From Hydrolagus colliei (taxonomy: Eukaryota), in NCBI GenBank assembly GCA_035084275.1, contig CM068755.1:7750001-7814000 (forward strand): DNA of 64,000 nt. Direction: 5' to 3'. Positions 1,704-57,486 of this stretch are shown in pieces. The notes beneath the pieces were generated by a model that saw only the letters and a program-made list of their open reading frames with translations, searched no databases and had not been told where the DNA came from. A program made the position numbers and the translations under genes. Numbering within the stretch: position 1 is the first letter of the stretch; each line of letters opens with the position of its first letter.

Positions 1704-1772
1704 AGCAGTAGAAGGAGGCGGTGGCTCTCTGAATACCGGGCCCAGTTGCCATGACTCCGGATCCGCTCTCAC

Positions 1773-1850
1773 CTGAAGGCCGCTGCGTTTGTTCCAGTTG
1801 AAGACGCTGCCCGGGTAGCCGCTCAAGGCCAGGAGCAGCTCGTGTATCAT
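1773..1850 (-). CDS. TUBGCP4: Gamma-tubulin complex component 4, coding exon 1
   Basis: ATG at 1850, MIHELLLALSGYPGSVFNWNKRSGLQ (GCP4 N-terminus), donor CAG|gtgaga at 1772. Lies in a CpG-rich region. Confidence 0.96.
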
Positions 1851-2691: not shown

Positions 2692-4479
2692 TTAATTCTC
2701 TGACTTTTGTTTAGTTGGAATTTTTTCGGGTCTTTGGATGAATTTGCACTGCAGTTTGGTCCAACAGCAAGCTGAACTCTCCAGGGCTTCAATTGGTTTG
2801 GCCACCTCTTTCCATATCCCAGCATTTTCGTCTAAAATGAAAGCATTTTTGTTCACAGAATATTCTTTTACATCACCATCATCCATAGCAGATGTTCCAC
2901 CACAGACGAACACCATATCTCTGATGAGACACATCGCATGGCATACCTCCAGTTTGGTGGAATTTGGTAGCAACGGCACTCTCTTGGCAGTTTTAGTTGC
3001 TTTGAATTTCTGCAAATTTACATCAATATTGTGCTTATGGCTTTGCACGCTGAGGTTGTGCTCCCCGTGGAATGCTACGACTGGCCTGTGCTTAAACTCA
3101 ATGGGGAAAGTCAAGCTTTGTTTCACCTCGCCGGTCATAGTGTCAAAACAATCCACCACTCCTACTCTGGAGATCCGTTCATTTATCATACACCTCCCCG
3201 TTGCTATGTAGATATACCTCTCCCCTTTGGTCACAATCTCAGCACAGTCCATAGGAACACTCATTCTTCCAATAGTTGTCCACTTTTCCTTCTTCTCTTC
3301 ATATTTATAAATGGTCGAGATATATTTTCTGGGTGCCACACTTCCACCCACTGTATACACTAATCCATTGCAAACTATCATGGAGTGGAAGACCAATCCC
3401 ATTGGTAGGTCTGGTAGCTTGCTCCAAGTAGACTTGTCGAGATCATATCTCCAGGCTGATCTTAAGCTGGCATTTTGCTCATTTGTCCCTCCTGTCACAT
3501 ACAAGTATTTCTGGGTGGAGACGGCACCCAAAGCTGCTGCTCTGTAAGGCATGTGAGTAACCTTGATCCACTTATTGTCATCAATGACGTATGCATAGAT
3601 TCCATTACGAAAATTGCCGTCGCTACTTTGACCCCCTAGAACAAGTACCACATCCATCAGAGTTCCCTTCCGCTGAAAATTCAAGAGGCTAGTTGGGTTT
3701 TCCTGCTTACGACGGCTCAACACATCGACTATGGCGACTACAGCATTAGCATTATTCTTAACCAGCGGCTCTTCACTACTGACTTCTGAAAGCATTTCAT
3801 CCGAGACTCCATTCAAGTGAATGTTGGAAAAAAGTTTTGAAAACTGTACCTTCCTATCTTCTAAATTATGTTTTGTCCACTGTATGACAGTGTGCAGCAC
3901 CTGGTCCTCACTGTCACCATGTAGGTCTTCATCCTTAATAAGTTTTAGTAAGATATGATATGGACATTCCAAAAATTCATCGGTGGAACATAGGTCCGAA
4001 AATTTATCTCTGATATATGTATATACTGTGGGTGATAAATCCAATAAATCATAGTTCTCAGCTAGCATCAGAGTGTACATGTAGTTCTGTCTGTCCAGAA
4101 TGAGTTCCAGGTACTCTACACAGTGTGACTTAAGTCGTTTTATCATAAAGTACTTTGCCCCCTTCAACAGGTCCTCCACATTTTTATCAGCGATGATGAT
4201 CTTCCCTGTGTAAAAATAATCCAGCAGTTGTTCCACTGACAGTGGGCTCATGTAATCTATATCGATGGTGACTGATAGCTCATCTGAAGGCTGGATGTTG
4301 CAGCTGTAGATTAAATCTTTCACGTAGGGGCTGACTGCAGTCAGGATGTTCTGATGAGCTGCAAATGAATGGGACCCAACATTGATCACCACATCACAAC
4401 ATTCCTTCTTCTGCCTCTGAATATTAAGAGCTTGTAAGATATAAGTACTGTGTTTATGATCATCAAATTCTAATTTCAT
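2692..4479 (-). CDS. CCIN: Calicin (BTB-BACK-Kelch sperm cytoskeletal protein), intronless, 595 aa
   Basis: Single ORF with BTB (F.AHQNILTAVSPY, LLDYFYTGKI), BACK and Kelch repeats. Contains calicin-diagnostic strings recalled from mammalian CCIN: MKLEF, QRKG, MPYRAAAL, KLPDLP.GLVFH, VGGS.APR.Y, ISRVGVVDCFDT.TG, TFPIEF.HRP. Confidence 0.93.
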   Translation of the reverse strand: MKLEFDDHKHSTYILQALNIQRQKKECCDVVINVGSHSFAAHQNILTAVSPYVKDLIYSCNIQPSDELSVTIDIDYMSPLSVEQLLDYFYTGKIIIADKNVEDLLKGAKYFMIKRLKSHCVEYLELILDRQNYMYTLMLAENYDLLDLSPTVYTYIRDKFSDLCSTDEFLECPYHILLKLIKDEDLHGDSEDQVLHTVIQWTKHNLEDRKVQFSKLFSNIHLNGVSDEMLSEVSSEEPLVKNNANAVVAIVDVLSRRKQENPTSLLNFQRKGTLMDVVLVLGGQSSDGNFRNGIYAYVIDDNKWIKVTHMPYRAAALGAVSTQKYLYVTGGTNEQNASLRSAWRYDLDKSTWSKLPDLPMGLVFHSMIVCNGLVYTVGGSVAPRKYISTIYKYEEKKEKWTTIGRMSVPMDCAEIVTKGERYIYIATGRCMINERISRVGVVDCFDTMTGEVKQSLTFPIEFKHRPVVAFHGEHNLSVQSHKHNIDVNLQKFKATKTAKRVPLLPNSTKLEVCHAMCLIRDMVFVCGGTSAMDDGDVKEYSVNKNAFILDENAGIWKEVAKPIEALESSACCWTKLQCKFIQRPEKIPTKQKSEN

Positions 4480-7044
4480 TTTTTAAGGTGGACAACAGTA
4501 CTCCAGGCTCTTGAGAAGATGTGAGTCTCAACTTTTAGATGTTGTGTGTTTGTTGTATCCAGGTAGTGATGCAAACATAAAGTGTGACCTCACAAAGCAC
4601 ATGCTGCCCTTACAATATATCATTGTTATTTAGTTTATAGTTATATACTAAAGTGCTCTGAGACTCCGTCCGGTGTGGAGGGCGCTATATATAAATCAAA
4701 GTTGTTGTTGTTGTTGTTTTGTGATGAATGCACCAACTTTCCTTCAAGTACAGTGACTAAGAGTCTGCTTCCACCCACACAGTGAGTTTATCCAGTGAGT
4801 AAGCTGAGGCTTAATTACTAGGAAGCTCCTAGACCTGACTGATGTCCCATGCTGAAGTAACCAACTTCAATATCCTGGGTTAGGAAGGTTTAAATCAACC
4901 AGGGACCCTGCTTCTTTTCACTATCCAATAATGCCCCGATCGAGATGTATTTTTGACTACCTATTGGGCAGAATAGATCAGGCCCCTGTATTATGCCTCC
5001 TGTAATCAAAAAGCCTTTCCACATGTATCATAGACCTTTGTATCATACAAAGAGGCTATTCAGGCTCACCATGCCGGTACAGCAGACTATCTATTTTGGA
5101 TTAGAACTGTGCCACAGAAAATGGAAAAGGAGTCAAGCACCTAACAGGAGGGGGAGGGTGAAAAAAGTTAACATTTATTTTTTAGAAAAATCTAAATTAC
5201 TCCAAGCATTGTTGAAAATCCATGTGTGATTTGCATTACAAGCAAGCCCTTAAAAGGCTGTCATCTTATGTATTATGTGTAAATGCCATTCATTCAATCA
5301 ATCTACTGTATTCCTTGTGCCTCCAACCAAAATTAGTATTCAGAATCATTTGGACACTATCTTAGAAAAACTTCAAAAGCGCTTTGATCTGATATCTGGG
5401 ACAGGAATGTTCAGCCCTGATGCAAAATAGTTTTCTTGACTTTTTTCCTGTTTTATCGAGATTGTCTCACACATGGCCTCACTTTAAATGGCCATATTTG
5501 CTTTCCAATTTCAATCACTTGTTGACAACAATTTTAAACTACATCATACAAATTTTTTACAATTAAATTTCCTTGTTGAATGCTCAGAAATGTTTATTGG
5601 CAGCTGTAAACTTTGTTAGTGAATAATGATAATCATAATACAAATTATAATTCTTGTATTTAATATTGCACCTATTTAATATTGCATCAAGCCATCTTCA
5701 AACGCTCTACAGAGAATTTCTGTGAACTTTTATAGAATTGTTTTTGAAATGTCAGTAAATGACTTTTTATCTGTCAAACATGTAGCTGATCTTGATGGCA
5801 TTTTGTGCATTTGGCAAATTACAAGAAGAAATCTAAGATACAAGTGTAGCTCCGTCGGGAATTTGTGAGTCATGCCATTTAAAAACTCTGATGACCTGTG
5901 CAGATAGATTCCCCAACTTGTGTCTTTTCTCCTTAATAAAGAGAGACATCAAATGTCTTATTTCACAATGATGACATTTACGGGGTCATCAGAGCAAAAA
6001 GAGCTCCTGGAGCTCTGACAACAAAACAGGCTTTCAATCAATCAATGTACAGATAGCGTGTGGACCAAAATATTTGTTAACATTGTGACTTCTAACTTTT
6101 ATACATTGTTGCTTGGTCACCATAAGAACCAAGACTCATTTGTATGGCAGCCACAGCAACCACTTGCACTTATATAGCACCCTCATACAGGATAGCTTCC
6201 GAAAGCATTTAACAATGGCAGAGCTTGACTGGCAGATGTTTTCATCCAAAAACATTGTTTGTTCAAGGTGAAGGGATAAACATTGTTTATCCCTTATTCT
6301 TGAGGAAGAATTATGTACCAGAGCTCTCTACTGACCAACAGACAAATAAAGGTGGTGTTATTACATGAACGCTAATCAAGGAGAGGGTGTTAGTGTTCCT
6401 CTGGCAGTGCATGGCGAATCATGCTCTTGAAATCACCTCTTCCAGGTGGTGCGAGAAGCAGTACCCCAATGCAATTCATATGGCCTCGTTCCCCCATTTA
6501 TAATGCATGTTGGGGAGCAGATGTTTTGTGGTATCAGTGCGCATTGAAGTAAAGAGCCAGCGGTCAATTAATCTGATCAGATGTTGTGAAGATGTTGTGA
6601 TGTTCAGAAACCACAAATGGCAATGGCATTCTTATTTCTCCATTTGATCAATGGGAAGGTTTGGACTGCCCAATAAATCAGCAATAGAGATATTAATCTT
6701 TGACAACTTAAGAATCTAATCAACCTCGTGTTGAAATGGAATTGGTGCAAAAGGGAGGATCTATTGAATTTTTATCACAAATAGACAGCTACTGATTTTC
6801 CCAGAGGCACAAGTGAATTTCACAGAAATAAATATCTTAAGTAAGTCACACGTTATGGCAAGATTAATGGATAAGAATAACAAAAGAATTCATGGCGCAA
6901 TTTGTTTTAAGAATTCGCAATAATCCCTTGAGTGTGAGAGCCAATCTCGCCTGGGTGGATTGCTTATGGTTTGATGGTTCTGTTGGACAAGAAAGCAGAT
7001 AATGACTTTTATCTGATTTCTCGTCCAGTTTTTAATGACATGCT

Positions 7045-8390: not shown

Positions 8391-8498
8391 CTACAAACAT
8401 TTGAGCAGGAAGAAATTGCAGCCAGTGCTTCTGGGACAGTCACAGAGTTTTCCAATCCTTGCTCCCTTCCTCACGGCACATTGTTCTCCGATGTCACA
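8391..8498 (-). CDS. CARTPT: CART prepropeptide paralog A, exon 3 (cysteine-rich domain)
   Basis: ttcccag|TGTGAC...TTG TAG translates [35 protein letters not shown], with the six CART cysteines. Confidence 0.96.
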
Positions 8499-11180: not shown

Positions 11181-11264
11181 CAGTGGGAGTTGTCCAAACT
11201 TCTTCTCCCAGGTAGGAAGCCTTTTACTCTGCAGTTTTTCGAGCACTTCTTGAAGAGCTCCCAG
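11181..11264 (-). CDS. CARTPT: CART prepropeptide paralog A, exon 2
   Basis: taacag|CTGGGA...CCACTG|gtaatg, 84 nt, translates LGALQEVLEKLQSKRLPTWEKKFGQLPL with both KR and KK sites. Confidence 0.96.
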
Positions 11265-11755: not shown

Positions 11756-12367
11756 NNNNNNNNNNNNNNNNNNNNNNNNNNNNNNNNNNNNNNNNNNNNN
11801 NNNNNNNNNNNNNNNNNNNNNNNNNNNNNNNNNNNNNNNNNNNNNNNNNNNNNNNNNNNNNNNNNNNNNNNNNNNNNNNNNNNNNNNNNNNNNNNNNNNN
11901 NNNNNNNNNNNNNNNNNNNNNNNNNNNNNNNNNNNNNNNNNNNNNNNNNNNNNNNNNNNNNNNNNNNNNNNNNNNNNNNNNNNNNNNNNNNNNNNNNNNN
12001 NNNNNNNNNNNNNNNNNNNNNNNNNNNNNNNNNNNNNNNNNNNNNNNNNNNNNNNNNNNNNNNNNNNNNNNNNNNNNNNNNNNNNNNNNNNNNNNNNNNN
12101 NNNNNNNNNNNNNNNNNNNNNNNNNNNNNNNNNNNNNNNNNNNNNNNNNNNNNNNNNNNNNNNNNNNNNNNNNNNNNNNNNNNNNNNNNNNNNNNNNNNN
12201 NNNNNNNNNNNNNNNNNNNNNNNNNNNNNNNNNNNNNNNNNNNNNNNNNNNNNNNNNNNNNNNNNNNNNNNNNNNNNNNNNNNNNNNNNNNNNNNNNNNN
12301 NNNNNNNNNNNNNNNNNNNNNNNNNNNNNNNNNNNNNNNNNNNNNNNNNNNNNNNNNNNNNNNNNNN
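11756..12367. other. Assembly gap (612 N) within CART-A intron 1
   Basis: Run of N. Confidence 1.
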
Positions 12368-12390: not shown

Positions 12391-12534
12391 CAGTTCCTTT
12401 TCGCTGGAAAGAAACGTATCTTTAGGGTAAAAGTTTCTCAGAGATCTGGACTCGAGTTCAGAGACTTCAGCCCCGCAGGTCAGGGCCATGAGGCTGCACA
12501 CACTGATCAGCAGGAGTAGCCGAGTGCTGTCCAT
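12391..12534 (-). CDS. CARTPT: CART prepropeptide paralog A, exon 1 (signal peptide); full precursor 111 aa
   Basis: accATGg at 12534, MDSTRLLLLISVCSLMALTCGAEVSELESRSLRNFYPKDTFLSSEKEL|gtcagt. The symbol denotes the family; one-to-one orthology to mammalian CARTPT is not established. Confidence 0.94.
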
Positions 12535-12543
12535 GGTGCTGAG
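12523..12543 (-). promoter_or_regulatory. RE1/NRSE (REST site) overlapping the CART-A start codon
   Basis: CTCAGCACCATGGACAGCACT matches the consensus TTCAGCACCATGGACAGCGCC at 18/21, with both half-sites intact. Confidence 0.85.
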
Positions 12544-12632
12544 GATACAGAAACCACTTTCAATCTGTAAAGGAAAGGCAGAGTCGACTCCTCTCAACCC
12601 GAGTAACTCACGGATACCGACGATCCACCAGC

Positions 12633-12639
12633 TTTTATA
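12633..12639 (-). promoter_or_regulatory. TATA box of CART-A
   Basis: TATAAAA about 100 bp upstream of the ATG. Confidence 0.75.
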
Positions 12640-15600
12640 CATATATCACCGTGCGCCTGGTGTATCAATATTGACTCGCTCCTCCCATGTGGCATGTGTG
12701 TGTGTGTGGACTGGTTTGCAGAGCGTGGGCGGTTATTTTCCCTTTGAAATGAAATGTGCATCAAGAATGCCTCTTTTCCCATTCAGCAAATAATGAAACC
12801 TCTCAGCTCAGGAGCTGGAGGCGAAGTTCGTCATCTGCATTACTAATAATGGGACTTGATGGATGGCGTGTAGAACATGCTGCAACCTCTGCTATTATAT
12901 ATATATAAAGAAAAACTGTGACACAAAGACTTGATTTGCATCGAATGCCATTCTGGCAAGTTCAGTTTGGTACTGTTGCATTTTCATTATGAGGTTAACA
13001 CCTAAAATGTTCATTTAGTTTTTTTCTAAGCAAATATTTTTTAACAATAATAAGTTTTCAAAGCAGAGGAACACACACACACAGATCAAGTACTGAATGT
13101 TTCCTTTCTTCTGGTTACCGATTACATTCTAGGCTCTACTCAAGGCTTCTGACTTGAGGTTCCTCCTGTTCGACCACGTTTTTGGTCACCACACTAACCC
13201 CCCACCACCCTCCCATCTGCCCTCCACCCCACCTGACCCAATGCCCCAGCTCAGGTCCAAACTCCTTGTCCAGCGCCTTAATGACTCCTGGCGCAAAAGG
13301 TACTATACACATGCCGTGTGTTATTGTTCTGATGTGATTATTTGCTGAGAGAAAGAGCAGAATCTACAGAGAAATGGGCGACTGTGTGAGCGAGCACTGC
13401 AAATTTATCACGAGGACACTCCATTTGATATTTTGCGAGTAATTCTCAGTTTAGGTCTGATTTGTTTTCACCTTTCCACAGTTCCCTGTTAATTTAGTTA
13501 AATTTGATGCTAATCCAGATTTACACGAACATTCTCAAATGAAGTGGCTGGTTATTGAGTAAACAATTATACAGATAGCTACTAGTTTGTTTATATAACA
13601 TATCCTTTATTTCTAATCCAATGTTTTGTGAAGCACTATGATGTATGTTTTTACATGTTGTATAGGTGTGACACAAACGTTAGCTATGACTATTCTTATA
13701 TGGCAAAGCTTATTAATGAGTTTAGGGTTGAGCATGTTTCCTAGATAACATATTTTATCAGTTCATTCGCGGTTTATATACTCGTCCAGTTTTTATGGTT
13801 TGTGCATTGATTACTTCAGACTGTCCTCCAATGTGCACTTAGTGTTACAATTGCTAGAAGAAAAACCAGGGAATAGATTAAAAGGATTTTTTGTGTGTGT
13901 TTAGAGGATTGTAAGTGTTTGGAATTGATTGCAATGGGTAGTTATTAAGGCTGGATCAATGGAAGCATTTCAAAGACAACTGCCGGATAAACATCTAAAC
14001 AGTAAACATGGGAGAGTTGGAAAGTGGGATTAATAAAGGAAATGGATGATTTGGCATTGTAGAGAGCAATGGAACGGACTCTTATTATCCCTCTGCGCTT
14101 AAAACATCTGTGTTTTTATATTAGTAATATCTTTATTGGAAGGAATGCATAATCCTGGACACGTAGTTGGTTGTTAACCCCAGGCTGTTTAGCTTGCTGA
14201 TGAAATAGGGAAATAATTATGTTGAGGAAATCACAATCTGAAACCATCACTTATTCAGTAATTCCCACCTTGTATAGCGAAACACTGAGGAATGTAATTG
14301 GTGCCAATTGAGGGAAGAGAGAAGAAAATGATTTTAGATTTAGATGGACCTGAGGAACAGAGAATGCAACATTCTGCATGTTTTGTCAAAGAATCTAACT
14401 TGTGTGAAACAGCCTAAGAGGCTGGTTGCTGGGATACAGTCAAGGAACTGCTTAGATCCCTTGTAGGTAATTATAGTCTTTTTGATCTCCTGGTTAAGCA
14501 TCAAGTTTCTGAGCATCCAGATTTAAGTATTCGCTGCATGGAACAAATATTGCTAAGCCTAGCAACGTTGTCAGTGTTAAATAAGATTGAGCCACAATCC
14601 TTTTGAAATCCATTTCTTGAGGTTCTTAGGATGGAAAACTCAATTTCATTCAATCTGTAAGCCATGAAGGCTTTGAGGACCATTCAAATATCATATTTTA
14701 CATTTACATCAAATTTCGGTCTTGCTAACAAACAAAGTCACATTTGGGCTCTGACTGAAATCTATATCAGCAAGACATGAGTATCAAAATAAGTCCTAAA
14801 TTTAGCAGAAAAGTATGAACTAAAGCTTAGTGGTCTATCCACTTGAGAAGTGTAAATTGAATGAAACCAAAATATATTGTGGAGTGACAGTAAAAATGTA
14901 CCCCATTTGCCAAGAGAGTTATTTCTTTTGCACGAGACAAGGGGTTTACAGCTCATGAACAGCATGAATCAAGGGAGAAGAAAGCAGAGGTTTTAATGGA
15001 GAGACAGAGAGGACGTGATACTCCAAATTCCTCTGGTCTTAGCCTAACAACCAGTATCCTAACATATACCATTGTTCAAAATGTTGGTAAATTCTCCAAA
15101 TTGTATAATTTAGAAGCCAGTTTTCTACTGTTCTTAAAAGAAAACAGGTTTCCATAATAAAGCTCAATTTAAGGATTTTCCAAAATATTGCTGAATCTTA
15201 AAGTTTGAGACTTAATTTGGTTAGATGGGTTGTACCATTCTTTAGACTCACCAAACCAAGCTGCTGAGAATTCCAATGATGTTGGTTTAATCTGTTTGGT
15301 ATGGAGTGCACCACACTTCTGACAGACACAACCCCATTTACCTAATCTTGGAGGTTCAGGCACAGGTTGGGGAACCCAAGCTGTCCAATGAGGGATGACT
15401 GGAATTTTTACCAGCTACACCCATGCAAATTATTGTTGCCAATTATTGTGGCAATATTCTTGCTCTTAATCCATCTAGACCAATTTCCAAACAAATCAAA
15501 GAAAGAAAGCCTTTTTGCTGCAGAAATCAAGTATATACTTTTTAAGAATTGCATGTTTTCCAAAGTACAATGGGGTTAAGTGCTCTGAGATGCTGCTTCA

Positions 15601-38891: not shown

Positions 38892-38999
38892 TCAGATGCA
38901 TTGGAGGAGGAAGGAGTTACAGATAGTGCCTCTGGCACAATCGCACAGCTTGCCAATTCTTGGACCTTGCTTAATCGCACATCTGTCCCCAATATCACA
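38892..38999 (-). CDS. CART prepropeptide paralog B, exon 3
   Basis: atttttag|TGTGAT...ATC TGA translates [35 protein letters not shown], with six CART cysteines. Absent from the ORF track. Confidence 0.95.
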   Translation of the reverse strand, partial: CDIGDRCAIKQGPRIGKLCDCARGTICNSFLLQCI

Positions 39000-39402: not shown

Positions 39403-39480
39403 CTTAGGGATCTGCCCAGCTTTCTTCTCATAAGATATGGCATTGTGGAGTTTGCCCAGTATTTCTTCCACTGCTTCAAA
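39403..39480 (-). CDS. CART prepropeptide paralog B, exon 2
   Basis: tcgacag|TTTGAA...CCTAAG|gtcagt, 78 nt, translates FEAVEEILGKLHNAISYEKKAGQIPK. Confidence 0.94.
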
Positions 39481-40236: not shown

Positions 40237-40377
40237 CAGTTCCTTCTCAGCAGAAGCGTTGGGAGTTTGGGCCGGATAGTCTTCAGCTGGGCTAAGCTCT
40301 CTGGACGATTGCCCCTGGCAGAGGAACAAGAGCAAACTCACACAGAGGAGGCGCCCGAGCAAGCTGCAGCTATCCAT
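40237..40377 (-). CDS. CART prepropeptide paralog B, exon 1 (signal peptide); full precursor 108 aa
   Basis: accATGg, MDSCSLLGRLLCVSLLLFLCQGQSSRELSPAEDYPAQTPNASAEKEL|gtcagt. Same EKEL|gtcagt junction as paralog A. Confidence 0.93.
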
Positions 40378-40386
40378 GGTGCTGAA
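40366..40386 (-). promoter_or_regulatory. RE1/NRSE (REST site) overlapping the CART-B start codon
   Basis: TTCAGCACCATGGATAGCTGC, 18/21 to consensus, with one mismatch in the GGACAG half-site. Confidence 0.7.
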
Positions 40387-40439
40387 CCTACACCCTCTCG
40401 AAGGAGAATCTTGTGATCTGCAAAGGGAAGAAAGGTGTC

Positions 40440-40512
40440 CTTATATAGGCACATTAGACCTGCCTGGCCAACAGCTCCGGGAGCTAATGAATATGGACTG
40501 CAGTGTGATTGG
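40440..40512 (-). promoter_or_regulatory. CART-B core promoter: TATA box and CCAAT box
   Basis: TATATAAG at 40440-40447 and CCAAT at 40508-40512, both on the minus strand. Confidence 0.7.
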
Positions 40513-40591: not shown

Positions 40592-40815
40592 ATAACAACA
40601 ACAACAACAATTTACATTTATAGAGCGCCTTTCACGTCGGGAGGACGTCCCAAGGCGCTGAACAGGAGGCGTGTGACCCGAGCTGGGAGGGGAGTGTTTG
40701 GGAAGGGGTGAAACACGAAGGGGAGGTAAAAGAGTTCGGGGTGGAACAAAAGGCACGATCGAAGAGGAAAGTCTTCAAACCGGCCTTGAAAGAGGAAGGG
40801 GAAGAGACGAAATGG
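40592..40815 (-). mobile_element. Well-preserved L2 3' fragment just upstream of the CART-B promoter
   Basis: SSFKAGLKTFLFDRAF, tail stem-loop cagcgccttgggacgtcctcccgacgtgaaaggcgct and (TTG)n; CpGs retained. Confidence 0.85.
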
Positions 40816-43800
40816 AGGGATAGACTGTGGTCAATGAACATTCTGTCAAGTTGTCTTTGCCTGGAAGCTGGATTTCTCCTACAGACCAATTAAGCATATG
40901 CTTATGAAGTTACCTTAGGAAAATTGACACAATGCTTAATTTCCAAGATCAAAAACAGCATCAACCTCTGTACTTTTTACATTTATTTTACAATCATCAT
41001 ATTTTCTGATGTGCTTTGAGTCAACTTTTGCAAATCCAAGTTATTACAACAACAACAACAACTTCGATTTATATAGCGCCCTCCATGCCAGGTGGCGTCT
41101 CAGAGCGCTTCACAGTAGCGGATCCCGGGACCGAGCCAGGGGCAGGGGCAGGAAGGTGACCAAAAACTTGGTTTATTATTAAACCAAATCTTATTGTTGG
41201 AAATGTAACTGGATTAATCCCAAAGAGCGCTGTTCTTCTTGAGTCAAATTGCTAAATCTTTCAACAATATTGAAATGGAAAACACAGCTCCCTAATTTCT
41301 ACAATGTTGTTGGTCATTCCATTTCATCTGAGTGATTTAATTCAATGTATTTCATATGTTAATGACTAAGTTATCTTGGGTGGTATCCTAGATCAATTTG
41401 TTTTTAATTATCTCACTTTTTAATTCTAATATCCTAATATTTTAATTTGTTTTGAAAATCTCATTAACTCCCATTGACAAGATGAATTACTTGTTTTTTT
41501 GGTTAAAAATCACAGTGTGACTAATTGGTGCTATTGCTTCATGGTAATGCTTCTTAGTAAGGTCTGCCATGGGAATTCCACTCTGGAAGTAGATTGTATG
41601 AAAACTCAGATTTCTGCATAATCTACTGTACTTCTAGTTACTGGTTGGAGCCTTGACATATGTGATATGGATTCCTTATTAAGGAGTCTCATTAGGAAAT
41701 AGTGCAAATTAGAACCCAACCATTCTATTGCACAATTTTTTCTTGCTGTGCAATATTAAAATGAAATAGTTTCTGAATACAGTCTGCAGTGAAGAATATA
41801 GTGACAAATAAGTTTTGAGTACTGAATAGTGTAGGGAAGGAGTCAGACTCAATAGGGCATGTTCTCAATGAAGTCACAAGGTAAATGTAACATTGTATTA
41901 AATAATAATCGTCATATTTCTATCAATTTCTAGCAAGTGCCTTCACATTGAGAGAATGTCTCAAAGCACTTCACAGGATTTAATATAAATTGTAGTGACT
42001 AAGTATTTTGCAGATGAATGACTTGTGAAAAACTATGAAACTATGGCACCCATGTCTGAGTATGTGGAGTGCTGTGTGCAGTTTTGGTCTTCCTATGTAT
42101 AAAACACAAGATATTCAGTTAAGAAGATGCACAGCAGGGGGAGACCAGATTAATTCTAGAACTTGGGACTGAGCTATGAAGAAAGATTAACACCTATCAC
42201 TTCCAGAGATTCTCAACAGCCTTATTTCAAATCATGAAAGGTTTGAACATTTTCCTTCTGTACAAAAAAGGTTTGAATCTTTTTCTCTGTGTACAAGATT
42301 CAAAAACATAAGGTCTTACATTCAATAGCCATTCAGCCTCCTCCTTTCAGAATACTCCTATTGCCATCTTCCCATTCCTCCGTTAATTCATTTCTTAAAT
42401 AAAACAAGCTGTTTCTTAAATAAATGATTGACATACATTACCCTCTATACTTTTCCAGGGTAATTATATACATTATAGGAACCATTGTCAGTGTTATTTT
42501 GCTCGTAATTAAACACATGCCTTAGTCCAATAAAATAGTCAAACACAGTTCACTTACCAAATACCCCCTACCATCTATAGGTTCCTACAGCTCAAAGCAA
42601 TATTTTAAACAGTACAAAGTTATCTTTATAATTGTAGCTGTAGCTGTAGCTGTTTGTCACGTCAAATGAGTTCACCATTTTTCATACAGTAAAGTCCTGC
42701 AAATAGCCATGAAGTAAATAACCAATTCATCTGGAAGATTGGTGGCTAGGTTTTTTAAGTATCCTGAAGTGATTCTCATCTGATTTAATCTTCTAGAACA
42801 TCCACCCTACATCCTATCACAGGATCAAGCTGCTTTTTAAATGAGACAGTGTCCTTGTCTCAGCCACTCTTCCTGGCAACCTGAAAGGATTATTATTATT
42901 ATTAACCTGTTCCAAACTTTAATTACCCACTGTGTGAAGAGAAGCTTCCTCGTATCTGTCTTGAAATTACCCTTTGCAACTCTAAGCCTATGTCCTCTTG
43001 TTCTACTGGCTTTGTACAGCGTAAAGTATTGTTCTGGGTTTACTTTTTCAATTCCATTTAAATTATTTCTCTCCCAAGCCTAAATTCAGAGCTCCATGGA
43101 ACTAACATAAAGAGATCTCATTATGTATCAAGAAGAATGAAATCCAGGACCCTGGTCTCTATTACATGGTTCTTTACCAGCAAAGCCACTGCAATAATAT
43201 TGCTTAAAAATTATGCCTCTTCTTATCGGATCTGAATGGAAAGGAAATTACTTCACAATATAATTCATCTAGTAGTAGATTCAACTTATTGCTCTCTTGT
43301 TTTTGTCGGTTGTTGTCAATTAAAATACTTCAGGACACTTAAAAAAATCTAACTATCATGTCCTTGTCTATTGGCTTCATATTTTCAGGCGCAGGAGAAG
43401 GCCCTGCAGCATACATTTTCCTTGTTTCAGGCAGCAGAAAAGCATCTGATAACTGCTTCTTGTAGCATTAATAAGGTCCTTTGGGTGGCCCATTATTTAG
43501 AATGTGTTTTGAACGATTTGCAGCAATAATAATATCAAGCATTTAGCTTGACTGTACTTAGCAGCAAATGAAGTGAAGTACTTGAAAATGTCATTGTGAT
43601 TAATAAGAATTATTTCTGTATTTCCCATGCTCACCTTTCGCTCTCTTTGCGTGAGGAAAGGCATCACAGATAGTTACACAGTCAAGTATTGATGGAGCTT
43701 GAAAATCATTTAAACCAAAGATAATTAGCTTAACAAGAGTTGTTGCCATACATTTGTTTGAAATAATGATTGCCAAATATAACTTATATGTGTGTATGCA

Positions 43801-45639: not shown

Positions 45640-46100
45640 TCATAGATAGATTCATAGAATTTTACGGCACAAAAGGAGGCCATTCGGCTCATCTAGTCTG
45701 TGCCGGCTCTTTGAAAAGAGCGATTCAATCCCACTGCCCTGCCCGCTCCCCATAGCCTAATAGACCTGTTCTCCCTAAATAAAGATCTAATTCCCTTTTA
45801 AAAGTTGTTATCGAATCAGCCTCCACCACCTTTTCAGGCAATGCATTCCAGATTCGAACAACTCGCTGAGTGAAAAAATTTCTCCTCAGCTCCCCTCTAC
45901 TTCGCCTTGAAACTATTTTAAATCTGTGACCACGAGTCACAGATTCGCCCACGAGTGGAAATAGTTTTTCTCTATTTACCCTGTCGAAACCCCTCATGAT
46001 CTTATAAACCTCTATTAGGTCTCCCCTCAATCTTCTCTGCTCCAGAGAGAATAACCCTAGCCTATCTAGCCTCTCCTCATAGCTGAAGTCCCTCAATCCT
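45640..46100 (-). mobile_element. CR1 LINE 3' end (ORF2 C-terminus plus 3' UTR), 5'-truncated, frame intact
   Basis: SYEERLDRLGLFSLEQRRLRGDLIEVYKIM...TRGH...RRNFFTQRVVRIWNALP...FKRELD, followed by a 3' UTR ending in ATTCTATG-like repeats. Older CR1 pieces at about 8720-9030, 13870-14110, 18060-18370, 20390-20570, 32430-32800, 42060-42320, 42890-43060, 55360-55535 and 63380-63800. Confidence 0.93.
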
Positions 46101-46317
46101 GTTGGAGATGTATCGATGTGAAAAGTGATATAGAATTGCAAGTTCTTTCTATCTTCATAATATCCATTAGATCATACATTGCGACTTCCATTCTGTGTGT
46201 ATTGATGCAAAAGAATAAATCTTACGTTTGATATAATGCCTTAGCACATCATTGAGACATCTCAAAAAGGTTCAAAGTATATACTGTAAAGTGAATATAC
46301 CTTGCACTGTATCTTAG

Positions 46318-48451: not shown

Positions 48452-48614
48452 AACAAAAACAGACGTTGCTGGGGAAACTCAGCAGGTCAGGCAGCATCCA
48501 TGGAGAAAGGAAAGCGAGTCAACGTTTCGGGTCTACAACCCTTCGACCCGAAACGTTGACTCTTTTTCCTTTCTCCATGGATGCTGAGTTTCCCCAGCAA
48601 CTTCTGTTTTTGTT
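48452..48614. repeat. About 160-bp imperfect palindrome (Penelope-like/MITE-like)
   Basis: Left arm aacaaaaacaga...gagtcaacgtttcgggtc and right arm gacccgaaacgttgactc...tctgtttttgtt. Confidence 0.85.
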
Positions 48615-48616
48615 AA

Positions 48617-49100
48617 TGATTGACAGGGAGTAGGGCGGAGTACAGACAGTAATTGACAGGGGGTGGGGCGGAGCCAGACAGTGATTGACAGGGAGTGGGG
48701 CGGAGCCAGACAGTGATTGACAGGGAGTGGGGCGGAGGCCAGACAGTGATTGACAGGGAGTGGGGCGGAGGCCAGACAGTGATTGACAGGGAGTGGGGCG
48801 GAGGCCAGACAGTGATTGACAGGGAGTGGGGCGGAGGCCAGACAGTGATTGACAGGGAGTGGGGCGGAGGCCGGGCTGTGATTGACAGGGAGTGAGGCGG
48901 AGGCCAGACAGTGATTGACAGGGAGTGGGGCGGAGGCCAGACAGTGATTGACAGGGAGTGGGGCGGAGGCCGGGCTGTGATTGACAGGGAGTGGGGCGGA
49001 GGCCGGGCTGTGATTGACAGGGAGTGGGGCGGAGGCCAAATATTGATTGACAGTGAGTGGGGCGGAGTACAGACAATGATTGCTAGGGAGTGGGCGGGGT
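48617..49100 (+). repeat. 33-bp minisatellite, about 15 copies, in the TTC23 promoter
   Basis: Unit GTGATTGACAGGGAGTGGGGCGGAGGCCAGACA, with variants ending GCCGGGCT. Confidence 0.97.
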
Positions 49101-49108
49101 TTGTGGCG

Positions 49109-49140
49109 GTTGCCAGGGGAGCGGCTCGGGCGCCATGTTG
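49109..49140 (+). promoter_or_regulatory. RFX X-box-like site and YY1 motif at the TTC23 promoter
   Basis: GTTGCCAGGGGAGC (49109-49122) has a perfect GTTGCC half-site; CGCCATGTTG at 49131-49140. Confidence 0.55.
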
Positions 49141-49186
49141 TCGCTCACTGGACCGGCTGAGCCGTTAGAGGGTCAGGTTTAAAAAT

Positions 49187-51581: not shown

Positions 51582-52083
51582 ATATCCTTTTATTTGTATT
51601 TCTAAATTTATCTTTAGAATGTGAGAAACAACCTTGCTGGAGTTCTACAGATCAATTTACTGATTTACTGTTCTTTTCCAGGCTGCAATGTTGTGCGTCC
51701 CATACAAGTGTAATTTTGTGGTTGTTAGCATTGATGGTCTGCTCTTGTTCAGTTCATCGCAGTGAGGATGGAGCCTGATGCATGTGCAAACCACTCATGT
51801 TTAAGAGTATCCTGTTCCAGCTACTATGTTCGCATGAAGCCAATTTTTGTTCTGAAAAATGCAGTATCTTTCCCCAGTCAAGATGGTCAGGAAACATATT
51901 GTCCACTTGCTTATTCCCAGAGAACACAGTGAAAAGGCATTGTGGACCACAAAGTATTCATTTGAATATAATACAAAATGCAATACAAAACTACATTTGT
52001 ATAGAGCCTTTGGACCCAAGCGGGGTCCAAATCCCTTTCATTCTTTCTTCCTGTGTTATTTTATTCCTTAACGTTTTTTTCAC
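51582..52083 (+). other. U12-type (minor spliceosome) AT-AC intron
   Basis: 5' ATATCCTTT, branch site TTCCTTAAC at 52064-52072, 3' CAC. Splicing keeps the frame (AA|T = Asn, giving GLQ-N-LKEAEQNL). Confidence 0.93.
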
Positions 52084-52209
52084 TCTGAAAGAGGCTGAAC
52101 AAAACTTACGAAAGTCAGAAAAGATTGCAAATAAGCTTCGACACGAGGCAGGAGTGACCCAAGAAGAGATGAATGAGGTGGATGCCAAAATTTCTTTGTC
52201 TTTTGGAAG
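52084..52209 (+). CDS. TTC23: TTC23 exon 5
   Basis: LKEAEQNLRKSEKIANKL...EVDAKISLSFG, donor AG|gtaaat. Confidence 0.9.
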
Positions 52210-54973
52210 GTAAATTTTCACTTTTTTTAAAAAAAAGTCTTTGTTTAAATGAGCCAGGAGTCAGCCATAAATCTTTAACAGATTTTCTAAAATAAGACAT
52301 TTTTAAATATTTAACTTTGAGAAGGGGACATCCTTAATTCTGTTGTATTGAAACTTTCCTAAAGTTAATGAATATCCCTGAGGGTTTTGCATCATTCGGT
52401 TACTGTGGTGGGTGCTTGCCGCAGGATGTCAATTGTAATTATAGGTGATACTTGCTCATGAACAGCCAGAGGGTGCCGTTACCCAGCTTCAGGTGGTTGG
52501 TTACTTGTTTCCACAAGGGAGCGATGCAGCTCAGTGTTTTGTATCCCGGCAACCAGAGCTGCAAACGTTTCGCCAGATGGTAATGACATTTACTGCAAAC
52601 TGTGATGTTAGGAAAGCCAGTGATAGAGGAAAGGAATGCTTTGCTTTCTACTGCATCACTGGCAATAGTTAAATACATCCGATCTGAAATATCCAAGAGA
52701 CAAGTCCCCTTTCACGTCAGATTAAATTACATATGATTGCAGGGGAATTTGTAAAATTACCTCATAGCTTCAATGGAAACTCACTGTAGCAGTCTAAAAT
52801 TTACACTAAAAGGTACCCATCAGGAGTTAAGCAATAGATAATTCCTCAAATAACTTCTAAAGATTCAAACCAACAGTGTCACAGCTTCAAGAGCTATTCA
52901 TAGTCACAGCGTGAAAAGCCTTGCTTGGCCTGTGTGGGTGGTAAGAAGTCTTGGTCCTTTTGTAAACTTTCACTCATGTTGTGTGAGAACAGTCTATAAG
53001 TATTCACTGGGCCTTTCAGTGCAGATAAATTCCTTTATTATGTGCTAATGGAAAATGAGATAGTTAAAAAATGCAGATTAAAAACCTATAAAAAAAACTA
53101 GGGAAGATAAGAGCACTGCTTGTAGATCTGTTTAGTAAGAACATCAATCTCGTGACATGTTTTAACCCATCCCTTTACTACAGAGTTTCAGAAAACAAGT
53201 CCCCATTTGTAATGATAAAATTACCAGACAAAGCTGGTGAGTATATCTAGGAAACAGCCTAAATACTGATAGGTGTGTCGGTAAATGTACTGAGCAGTAT
53301 GGATCAGGAAAATGATGCAGTATAGACAAGAACACTATTTAATCTCTTTGCAGTTTATAAACAACCATTACAGATAGTATTAATATACAGTATCTGGTTA
53401 TATATGCAAGTAAGAAGTGTGAGCAAAAATGTTGGAATGTAATACTCGGTAGGGTGGGACCTTTATGCTATTGACCTAGGTTAATCCACTCCCCAGTCCT
53501 CAAGGTGGCACTCGGAGTGGCTTCATTCTGATGCATTAGGGGGAGAAAAAATCACCCAGGTTCCCAATATCCAGTGACCTGCTGAGATGCGGATGTATAG
53601 ATATCTGAATACACAAATGTGATGGCCCAGCTGTTAAATATTTTGTTGACACTTACTTTGAAGGCACACAAATTAAGAATGTTCATGGAACAATATCCTA
53701 GTAGAAGGAATCAGTAGAGAGGTGAGAGTACTTATTTATCAATGTAATAAGTCATCTGCTATCCTGCTGGATAGCCTGCATATGGTTATTTTGACTTGGC
53801 CCTTTTCAAACCGATGATCACATACAAGGAAAGGATGATGTCATCCAGTTTGTACTGCTCATTAACCATTGACATTCACTGAAGCAAAACAGAAGCTCCA
53901 TTCATTGCATCCAAGTTCTGGAGGCACCTCCCTCACACTCGCAAGCAAAACCCTCAATATAGAACCAGCATTCTCTTCCCCCGACTCTATTCTTTGGAGA
54001 TTTCATTATTTTCTGAGACGGAAAAATCAGGAACAACTGTGGGTGGAAGGAGAAAAGGAAGGAAAGTATGACGATTCTGCTGCTGGACAAAAGGTCTCTT
54101 GTTCTGCTAGAAACGGTGAAGTTCTGAATTTCAGGAGGGACAAGGGAGCCTAACAACATAAGCATCAGGATGTTCCTTATCCAAACAATAATTACTTTTC
54201 ACCCAACCACGTTATTTTAACATTATGTTATTTTTGAGTCTTTAATTTCCTGTTTCCATTCTTCTCTGCATATTTTTTTCCATGTATTTTGATATTTATG
54301 AATTTGGCTCTGCACCCAAATGCAATTTATTTTCCACTTGGACAAAAGTACATTCTGTAATCAGTTCCTGTCAAGTTCAAGCTCCTGTTGTAATTCTCTT
54401 TCAGTCAGTACGTGTGTGTGGTGGGTATACATTTGTACGTACACACACATGACTTGGCATGTTTTCATCATTGTGATTGTCTACTTCTTTCGTACTCATG
54501 CCTTACCTTTTGAGGAAATCTCTTTGCATCGAGTTGAATAGTACTACTTTTGATAGTAAGCGAAAGTTATCAAACTTCCAGACGTTTATCAAGAAAGGCT
54601 CTTTTGCCTAGCTCTTCTGATGTTGTAGTTGGATGAGGTCCCAGATTGAGTTATCTGATTTCAGATAGGACAGCCTTTGGGGTGTTGCGATTGGTCTTGG
54701 CACCTCTGGGTTAGAATGGAGTAATTTGATTTGAATTCCGCTCCTTAATTGCTTTGCACGGAGATCATCCAAACTCTTGCTGGAAACAACTGCAAACATC
54801 TGTTGAGGACATGATTGGAGCTTAACTGTGACACTTCCTTGAGATTGAATAACCTAACACTCAAAAAAAGCACTGTCAGAATTTTGTTTCTCTATAAACA
54901 ATAAGAATTTGCAAAGGGATCGGATTGATATTATATGTGACAGTGCAATATGATTTTTGCTGTGAATTTCCAG

Positions 54974-55151
54974 GTTGTACATGAAGTTAAAAAAGCCAGC
55001 CCAAGCTGTGGAGTGGTACAAGAAATTGCTTCAACTGGTGAAATTCAGCAAGGGTGAAAACGGCATGGAGTGTGTGAGTGTCTATGAGGACCTGGCAGCT
55101 GCAGAGCAAGCCAGAGAGGCGCAGGACATGAACTTCCACTACTTACGACTG
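54974..55151 (+). CDS. TTC23: TTC23 exon 6
   Basis: ttccag|G TTG TAC...CTG|gtaaga; includes SKGENGMECVSVYEDLAAAEQA. Confidence 0.9.
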
Positions 55152-56920
55152 GTAAGAGCCTCGAATAAAGAGAGAGTCACCTGTAGGTGCAAAGAGCTGG
55201 GGGAAAATCTTATACAAGTTTGCCTATGTACTATACGTGTACATGTATATGCACAAACACATTGTAACAGGTGCTCTGAGACGCCGGCATGGAGGGTGCT
55301 ATATAAATGCAAGTTGTTGTAACTGAAATAAGATTATGTTAAGATTAAGGGTTTAGACTAATAGAACATAGAAATTCACAGTAAAAAAGGTGTTCCTTTT
55401 AGTGTTCCATTGTGTTTGTGATGGATTTTTAAAGAGCAAAACATTCACTCCCTTAACTTATCTTTCCCCTATAATTGTCGCCTTTTTAGGTATTTATCTA
55501 GTTCCCCGTTGAAAGCTAATATTGATTCTGCCTCAACTACAACAACAAACTTACACTTGTATAGCGCCTTTCATGTCAGAAGGATGTCCCAAGGTGCTGG
55601 GAAGGAGCAATCCTGCTCCAGGCAGTTCATCCGATCTTTCAGATGAGACGTTTAAACCATCTCCCTGTTCAGGTGGAAATTGGAGATCCCATGGCACTGT
55701 TCAAAAAGAGAAGGGAGTTTCTCCTGGTGTCTTGACCAATAAATCCCTGGGTATTTTGTGGGCGCAAACTGACTGCTGCCTTTCACCCACAAAATACTCA
55801 GTCAATCCACTTTATAGTATGTCCCCTGAAGTTCTTTGAAATGTCTCGACAACGAGGCAGGAAAAGGGACTTCCACAATCACTCCTTCATTCAAATAGTC
55901 TGTGTAGGTTCACACTTCGAGAATTCCTCCCACTCCTTGAATGAACACCCTTGCTGCAGTGCAGTGGTAGTTAAAAGAGCAGAAGGTATTTTAAAGCTAC
56001 ACTGAAGTAGATGTTGCACTGATTTAACTGAGAGTGGGCATTTAACTAGTATTCTTTGTTCTCAGTGTGACTTATTTTATGCAAAGATTAATCTTGTGCT
56101 TTAATCTAGCTATTGTCTTTCTGTAAAATCTACGTTGTTTCCAGCCACATTTTTTTAAAAGTCATTTGACCTTTTTAAAACATTTCCAGAAATGCCCAGC
56201 TATTTCTTCCTTACATGGGCAAGTTAGCAGAATACAGAAATCAATCGTAAATCCTTCACCCTCAAAGTGTTGTGGGTTGTGGTCTCAATATAAACTTGAG
56301 GAACTAAGTACTTGAAAATCCCAAGTAAGTTTCCCATGATGCCTCTGAAAGCATATTTAAACAAAAAAAACTGCTCTTATGTTGCAAGACTAAATAAAAT
56401 GAATGCTGCTGCCTTTCTTTCCAGTCCCCCCTCCCCCCCAACAGATCATCCACTGAAATGCATTAAAGTGCATTAAATATTTTGATTCAATTATTGTAAT
56501 AAATAAACCTAAGCAATCACTGAAATGTTGAATATATGGAACTCCGCATTTTTTAAACAATACATTCCCAAACCATGTATAGTTGGCAGGTGAGAGCAGG
56601 ATTTGCCTGCGATGCCTCTGGCATGTGCTCTCACAAAGAACGTTTGATGTTGGTGGTGTGAGGTAATGTGTTTTCACAATGTTTTAGTGTTTGTTATTCT
56701 TTATTCAGCCATTGTGCTTTTCCATTCGCATTGTGTAAAAAAAAATAAAGCCCTTATATCATTGCCTGTTGCTCTAACTTCTGGGGCTTTCTATCAGACC
56801 TCCTGTTGCAAAACTGTCCTAAAATAACCTTGCCTGTTTCCTGCCGAGTATCCTGCCTTGAAGAGTTGCCAGTCTTGGTCTAATACTTGTGATATTGATC
56901 TGATTCGCCTTGTTTCACAG

Positions 56921-57026
56921 GCTCATTCCACAGTACTGAGCAATGCTCCCTCTGGACAGGAGGTGGGACAAATAGCTCATACTCTGGCAGAGGCCTATGC
57001 TGCGTCCAGTAGGCCTGAGCACCACG
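56921..57026 (+). CDS. TTC23: TTC23 exon 7
   Basis: ttcacag|AHSTVLSNAPSGQEVGQIAHTLAEAYAASSRPEHH, donor G|gtatgt. Confidence 0.9.
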
Positions 57027-57140
57027 GTATGTCTACTGAACCTTTCCAACATTGTTTTCATTTGTCTGATTACAGAGTATTAAAAAGACTGCCTACCATG
57101 ACTTCTCTTTTTAACAGTGAAGCAAAAAAAAAAGCATGTG

Positions 57141-57486
57141 CAGTAAAAGCTTTTGTTATCCGGCACCCTCGGGACCCGATCGGTGCCGGTTAATCAAATA
57201 TGCCAGCTATTCGAGCAGCAAGTTGCCAAAAATCCCACACTAAAAATTTAACTTATTTCAAAACATACCATATTAATAATAGACTAAATAATAACAGAAT
57301 ATTGTATGGATACTTGCCAATAAAGCATTCCAGCACACTTGGTAAAATCGCGTTCGGTAAGTTTAATAAGTGCACATGCATGGCTCCAGAATGAGTTCCA
57401 GGTGCTGGAATGGTGAATTGTATTGGGAGATACGGGTTGGTTGAGTGTTCCGGTTGGTTGGGTGCCAGATAACCAAGCTTTTACTG
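57141..57486. mobile_element. Non-autonomous DNA transposon (Tc1/mariner-pogo-type MITE)
   Basis: About 27-bp terminal inverted repeats CAGTAAAAGCTTTTGTTATCCGGCACCC / GGGTGCCAGATAACCAAGCTTTTACTG. TA on the right flank, TG on the left. Confidence 0.8.

Follow-up and report, generated by a model that had tools for sequence, protein, structure and literature searches.

Two CART-type genes, here termed gene A and gene B, are present in the 64,000-nucleotide stretch of Hydrolagus colliei DNA that was analysed (the window), and the start codon of each lies inside a 21-mer of the RE1/NRSE type, with the match in the same register on the ATG and retained in both paralogues (Table 1). We consider it reasonably probable that these 21-mers are REST sites that silence both genes outside neural cells and at the same time constrain codons 2 and 3. 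That the gene A site is a working RE1 at all appears highly probable.

Table 1. Coordinates of the two CART-type genes and of their candidate regulatory elements in the window
Feature	Position	Strand	Remark
Gene A RE1/NRSE-type 21-mer	12523..12543	-	-9..+12 around ATG; perfect match to published 17-mer
Gene A start codon	12532..12534	-	RE1 positions 10-12; A at -3, G at +4
Gene A coding exon 1	12391..12534	-	signal peptide and pro-region
Gene A coding exon 2	11181..11264	-	
Gene A coding exon 3	8391..8498	-	six-cysteine CART peptide and stop
Gene A TATA-like box	12634..12639	-	105 nt before ATG
Gene A CRE-like half site TGACG	12829..12833	-	299 nt before ATG; 5-mer, could be chance
Gene A intron 1 N run	11756..12367	.	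612 N; any second, intronic NRSE there is hidden
Gene B RE1/NRSE-type 21-mer	40366..40386	-	same register on ATG (40377); one core mismatch, position 15
Gene B coding exon 1	40237..40377	-	
Gene B coding exon 2	39403..39480	-	
Gene B coding exon 3	38892..38999	-	Pfam CART domain and stop
Gene B TATA-like box	40442..40447	-	70 nt before ATG

Both genes consist of three coding exons and lie on the same strand, with gene B 28 kb upstream of gene A; the introns of gene A are of the GT-AG type, and the products have 111 and 108 residues, respectively. Exon 3 of gene B matches the Pfam CART domain (PF06373) with an e-value of 1.3e-18, and exon 3 of gene A is 66% identical to it and has all six cysteines. 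The known traits of CART prepropeptides, namely a C-terminal six-cysteine domain, three coding exons, an N-terminal signal peptide (recognized by eye) and a dibasic cleavage site, are all present. By-eye matching to published alignments (PMC4436185), taken together with the tubgcp4 neighbour, suggests that gene A is of the CART3 type, being nearest to the coelacanth and frog CART3, and that gene B is of the CART4 type, being very near the elephant shark CART4. The two genes share three coding exons and probably one syntenic region with the vertebrate CART3/CART4 tandem pair, whereas the K-C-I signature of published CART4 is replaced by a terminal Q-C-I in gene B (38892-38900, minus strand). 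In frog, coelacanth and tilapia, CART3 and CART4 are found together in the same syntenic region (PMC4436185), and the pair is therefore likely to be older than the split between cartilaginous and bony fishes. Downstream of gene A there is a TUBGCP4-like first exon, just as tubgcp4 neighbours the CART3/4 slot of the frog. This probable first coding exon (1770-1850, minus strand) lies in a GC-richer stretch and has a weak Pfam match to the gamma-tubulin complex; it is provisionally named TUBGCP4-like.

Several other features were observed in the window. A single-exon ORF of 596 codons with a BTB-BACK-Kelch architecture (Pfam) is located about 4 kb downstream of gene A (2692-4482, minus strand), and presumably resembles calicin. 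Upstream of gene B and on the opposite strand, exon-like frames with weak TPR matches (51779-57193, plus strand) belong to what we take to be a TTC23-like gene. At 48606-49158 a GC-rich sequence with a period of 33 bases is repeated in tandem, in about 12 copies that overlap, and a frame at 45725-46171 (minus strand) presumably resembles the end of the reverse transcriptase of a CR1/L2-type retroelement. SINE-like dispersed short repeats with AAC-rich tails occur at 40592-40667, 41043-41095 and many other places; one of them, located 245 bases ahead of the gene B start codon, contributes a TATA-like word at that point.

The initial annotation had placed the start codon of gene A within a near-consensus RE1. 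The minus-strand sequence from 12543 to 12523, CTCAGCACC-ATG-GACAGCACT, is in fact a perfect match to the published degenerate 17-mer NTYAGMRCCNNRGMSAG (PMC4430910) that we used as the RE1 model, with the ATG at positions 10-12. The quality of the sites was judged both with this 17-mer and by comparing them by eye with 33 of the 38 validated human sites given in the supplement of PMC1794552, the core being defined as the 14 positions 2-9 and 12-17 (PMC1794552). As had been proposed, the Kozak context, the initiator methionine and the Asp-Ser codons together form the element: the left half TCAGCACC (positions 2-9) is exact in both genes, the right half GGACAG (positions 12-17) is exact in gene A and has one change, at position 15, in gene B, and the two-nucleotide spacer is AT in both. 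It is the length of this spacer that matters and not its identity (PMC4430910). Gene A has the majority base of the 33 validated human sites compared at 14 of the 14 core positions, and departs from the commonest 21-mer at only four positions (1, 11, 19 and 21), all outside the core; at positions 2-17 it is identical to the human NPPA site (PMC1794552). In gene B the T at core position 15, which falls on the synonymous site of codon 2, is seen in one of these 33 human sites, and the core as a whole is that of a validated human SNAP25 site (PMC1794552). Both genes have in common with the canonical RE1/NRSE, as described in PMC1794552 and PMC4430910, the two half sites and the two-nucleotide spacer. 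They differ in location, with most RE1s being intronic or distal (29.4% intronic in the figures of PMC1557810), whereas the CART sites overlap the start codon and coding sequence. Published orthologues of gene A begin at the same methionine, and there is no other ATG between its TATA-like box and its start codon.

Across both strands of the window the 17-mer matched perfectly once, at the ATG of gene A (0.012 matches expected), and with one mismatch once, at the ATG of gene B (40386-40370; 0.43 expected at up to one mismatch). Nine further matches had two mismatches, about 7 being expected at up to two, and these nine, two of which lie inside introns of gene A, were taken as chance occurrences. 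Of the 2491 ATGs in the window, the starts of genes A and B alone have two or fewer mismatches to the RE1, and the same two stand alone among the 291 ATGs with a purine at -3 and G at +4. The gene A site is absent from the 20 largest of the at least 60 repeat families listed. The RE1 and a good start context coincide over eight consecutive positions (-4..+4). With this Kozak core granted, the other eight informative bases would give a perfect match by chance with a probability of about 1e-4, and one with at most one mismatch with about 2e-3; with M-D-S granted as well, the remaining TYAG at -8..-5 has a chance probability of 0.006-0.009, and the TCAG found there departs from the Kozak consensus at three of the four positions. 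RE1s of the ATG type are themselves frequent, making up 4 of the 33 validated human sites, and the motif CCATGGA is seen in 269 rows of a frog RE1 table of more than 1640 rows, where rows are gene-site pairs rather than sites. Given this frequency and the natural overlap of RE1 and start context, the overlap itself is no surprise. The earlier proposal of a triple-use sequence stands insofar as an RE1-quality site spans the ATG, but is less coincidental than it looks, because an AT spacer suffices to give any RE1 a strong start context, and RE1s of this type are frequent; the mu-opioid receptor, moreover, provides a precedent.

Gene B served as the main control, as it is a paralogue that was not picked for its RE1 match. 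Around the ATG the two genes are identical at 8 of 9 positions from -9 to -1 and at 8 of 9 from +1 to +9 (together 16/18), and this peak of identity coincides with the 17-mer. In ungapped comparison, the flanks are at background, with 12 of 51 positions identical from -60 to -10 and 22 of 60 from +10 to +69. In exon 3, two of 8 four-fold and five of 13 two-fold sites are identical, and on these small counts (8 and 13 sites) the neutral sites look saturated. Gene B thus retains 13 of the 14 core bases against flanks and synonymous sites that are at background. Conservation of the 21-mer beyond what the Kozak context and the amino acids impose is seen in the TCAG at -8..-5, which is kept in gene B, and in the perfect sites of the frog CART1 and CART4 slots discussed below. 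Synonymous conservation at codons 2 and 3 is divided: the serine codon is AGC in both genes, but the third base of codon 2, the single core mismatch of gene B, differs, although a silencer should require C or G at this site. Four of the eleven listed runs of DNA from close relatives were compared, of which X6 and X7 span the whole 21-mer, X11 part of it and X10 none; among the changes listed, the 21-mer has one, at non-core position 19 in X6, which changes Thr4 to Ser. At the observed divergence (7 differences in 281 bases) the core would be expected to stay unchanged 70% of the time, and the close relatives are therefore uninformative on constraint. A pyrimidine tract ending in CAG is also seen 30-40 bases before both ATGs (12563-12577 and 40416-40430, minus strand; 13/15 identical), perhaps representing an initiator or else a splice acceptor within the 5' UTR; 19% of shuffles of the 5' flanks reach the same score, and the similarity is not significant.

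Read in frame, the RE1 17-mer permits only M-(D/E/A)-(S/R), and the initial annotation had suggested that this could explain why CART precursors tend to begin with M-D/E-S. Supplements 1 and 2 of PMC4436185 together give 38 rows, and after removal of two that lack the N-terminus, 36 precursors were left. An M-D/E-S start is found in 21 of these and is missing from 15; since the precursors are related and many are genome predictions, this count is to be read as a trend and not as 36 independent tests. By group, the start is present in 2/2 CART1, 5/12 CART3, 6/9 CART4, 8/11 CART5 and 0/2 CART6 (one of which begins M-E-R), and by lineage in 9 of 12 non-teleost and 12 of 24 teleost precursors; those without it include all four full CART3b of non-zebrafish teleosts and both CART6. 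It thus spans four old paralogue groups, while the remainder of the signal peptide varies, and a crude expectation from uniform codon usage is 0.6%. Not all features of these N-termini follow the RE1. A or G at RE1 position 18, which would give arginine at residue 3, occurs in 11 of the 33 validated human sites, but arginine is found in only 1 of the 22 CART starts with M-D/E-S/R; its rarity where the RE1 permits it indicates that descent or protein constraint also acts. Likewise, Ser3 is kept after a change of residue 2 in three published precursors (M-Q-S twice and M-T-S once). In sum, the RE1 is a likely cause of the M-D/E-S N-terminus, with the 21 of 36 precursors favoring it, and with the remaining 15, the off-consensus base in codon 2 of gene B and the lack of a perfect site at the probable frog CART3 counting against it.

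Evidence from the frog was drawn from the RE1 table in supplement 1 of PMC4430910, which lists perfect sites, so that sites with one mismatch would not appear. A name search of this table found no row named for CART or the mu-opioid receptor, and since CART genes are unnamed there, two ATG-type sites can be tied to CART by position only. XtropNRSE509 is a perfect ATG-type site reading M-E-S/R (PMC4430910, supplement 1). It is on the same strand as mccc2 and a Futsch (MAP1B-like) gene, 4.1 kb beyond the former and 72 kb ahead of the latter. We take the human gene order to place CART1 between mccc2 and MAP1B, and by position, with its MAP1 neighbours, XtropNRSE509 is where CART1 would be expected. 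XtropNRSE675 is likewise a perfect ATG-type site, reading M-D-S/R (PMC4430910, supplement 1). It is on the same strand as tubgcp4 and the 3-kb gene LOC780026, and is upstream of them by 82 kb and 75 kb, respectively. LOC780026 is the probable frog CART3 by its position, its size and a presumed pairing of its protein accession with a CART3 mRNA accession. From its position we infer that XtropNRSE675 marks the frog CART4, which begins M-D-S. None of the 18 rows for this scaffold, all of which were inspected, places a perfect site at the probable frog CART3, which would be the direct orthologue of gene A. In chicken, a CART1 cDNA primer spans RE1 positions 7-17 with zero mismatches, and the serine codon is AGC, as in genes A and B, while chicken CART2 begins M-G-T and does not fit the RE1. 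CART is absent from the supplement of validated sites of PMC1794552. The RE1 on the start codon is likely to be older than the split of CART1, CART3 and CART4.

In the mechanism that we favor, REST would likely bind the RE1 as a DNA duplex just downstream of the predicted transcription start of the CART genes. Transcription of gene A is predicted to start about 75 nt before the ATG, with the RE1 just inside the transcript, and the spacing of the TATA-like boxes from the two ATGs similarly suggests that each RE1 lies a few tens of bases inside its transcript. REST recruits mSin3/HDAC and CoREST (PMC1702488), and recruitment of Sin3/HDAC and CoREST to the CART RE1 would likely keep CART off in non-neural cells. 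With REST low, as in neurons and neuroendocrine cells, repression would be lifted, and these bases, now part of the mRNA, would provide both a strong start context and codons, the RE1 likely holding codons 2-3 at Asp/Glu-Ser. Such an overlap is cheap, because in an RE1 with an AT spacer position -3 is a purine, -2/-1 are CC and +4 is G. The five-base CRE-like half site of gene A would fit the REST-versus-CREB antagonism of mammalian CART. No second RE1, perfect or with one mismatch, was found in the readable introns, 612 bases of intron 1 of gene A being N.

The conserved N-terminus need not be the work of the silencer. The RE1 could be functional and yet ride along on an M-D/E-S start that has been retained through mere descent, or because the protein or its translation requires it, for instance for the G at +4, for N-terminal acetylation or for the behaviour of the signal peptide. 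The three precursors in which Ser3 survives a change of residue 2, the near absence of arginine at residue 3 although the RE1 permits it, and the tolerance in gene B of a non-consensus synonymous base in codon 2 are all in keeping with this. We nevertheless regard it as unlikely, as the two genes have little in common in the remainder of the signal peptide (22 of 60 bases), serine is encoded by AGC in genes A and B and in chicken CART1, and the same site together with an M-D-S start (read from a primer) is found in the mu-opioid receptor, an unrelated protein that has no signal peptide. It is quite improbable, in our estimate, that there is no silencer at all, and that a Kozak context followed by M-D-S codons resembles an RE1 by chance and is shared by the paralogues through descent or a short gene conversion. 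The eight-position coincidence of the RE1 with the start context and the commonness of ATG-type variants speak for such a resemblance, as do the estimate that about 41% of the consensus matches in the human genome are due to chance (PMC1794552) and the missing perfect site at the probable frog CART3. These points are countered by the small probabilities that remain once the Kozak core, or the Kozak core and M-D-S, are granted, by the confinement of the A-B identity to the 17-mer, which would be too short for ordinary conversion, and by the two additional perfect ATG-type sites in frog CART slots.

A third alternative, which we hold to be very improbable, is that REST mainly or also acts on the NRSE in the mRNA near the start codon and thereby tunes translation. 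A mode of this kind has been proposed for the mu-opioid receptor, as the title 'Novel function of NRSF for posttranscriptional regulation' conveys, and both CART sites would sit in the transcript on the sense strand. However, the in-transcript position is explained equally well by promoter-proximal binding to DNA, and DNA binding is the mode tested for the mu-opioid receptor site (PMC1702488).

Beyond the REST-site reading of the two present genes, we tentatively consider a family-wide scenario, which we rate as possible though rather doubtful, in which the RE1 over the ATG was already present in the single ancestral vertebrate CART gene and was inherited by CART1, 3, 4 and 5 through tandem and whole-genome duplications, dictating M-D/E-S. 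CART2, CART6 and most teleost CART3b would then have lost both this start and REST control, and been freed for non-neural expression. Were this so, REST silencing would be flagged at the protein level by the first three residues, and the mu-opioid receptor, and perhaps other neuronal genes, would have reached this flag independently. If the silencer reading of genes A and B is true, a transcriptional silencer would have fixed the first codons of a neuropeptide family since before the split of cartilaginous and bony fishes, and a simple sequence rule would be at hand for recognizing REST-restricted members among the 4-7 CART paralogues of non-mammals. In practical terms, transgenes and reporters that replace the CART ATG region would also remove the silencer; a similar near-ATG effect has been suggested for opioid-receptor promoter vectors (PMC10499891).

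Our search of the literature, which covered few subscription papers, found no publication that describes a CART start codon covered by an RE1, or the conservation of such a site among the paralogues, and the paper describing vertebrate CART3 and CART4 (PMC4436185) nowhere mentions NRSE, NRSF, a promoter or a silencer. The initial annotation had stated that mammalian CART is reported to be REST-regulated, and statements in reviews agree, describing it as controlled by REST, which antagonises CREB (PMC10605157, PMC4596026, PMC5094146). The repressor and the gene family are common to both systems, with mammals having CART1 only and the present genes being of the CART3 and CART4 types. Zhang et al. 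2012 (JBC) reportedly described control of mammalian CARTPT by REST/NRSF through a 'dual NRSE mechanism', and the promoter-proximal NRSE said to have been found there may well be the CART start-codon site. A single stretch acting as a transcription factor site, start context and codons is also familiar from 'duons' and from the YY1 motif over start codons, in which the factor is different from the REST of the CART genes.

The closest parallel is the NRSE of the mu-opioid receptor gene (OPRM1/Oprm1), which starts at -9 and has the ATG at positions 10-12, as in the CART genes, and which by primer reads M-D-S, like gene A (PMC1702488). It is conserved in mouse, rat and human, where the NRSE and the GC box/Sp3 site that follows it occupy the interval from -9 to +20, and when the NRSE is mutated a reporter rises 6-fold in REST-positive but not in REST-negative cells (PMC1702488). 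The receptor is a GPCR while CART is a secreted neuropeptide, and repression has been demonstrated for the receptor and is proposed for CART. With this precedent, the use of one sequence as silencer, start context and code is a known design. The kind of element described here is accordingly already known, and the family-wide reading, with an ancestral site that would shape the N-terminus and a predictable loss in certain paralogues, forms the modest new part.
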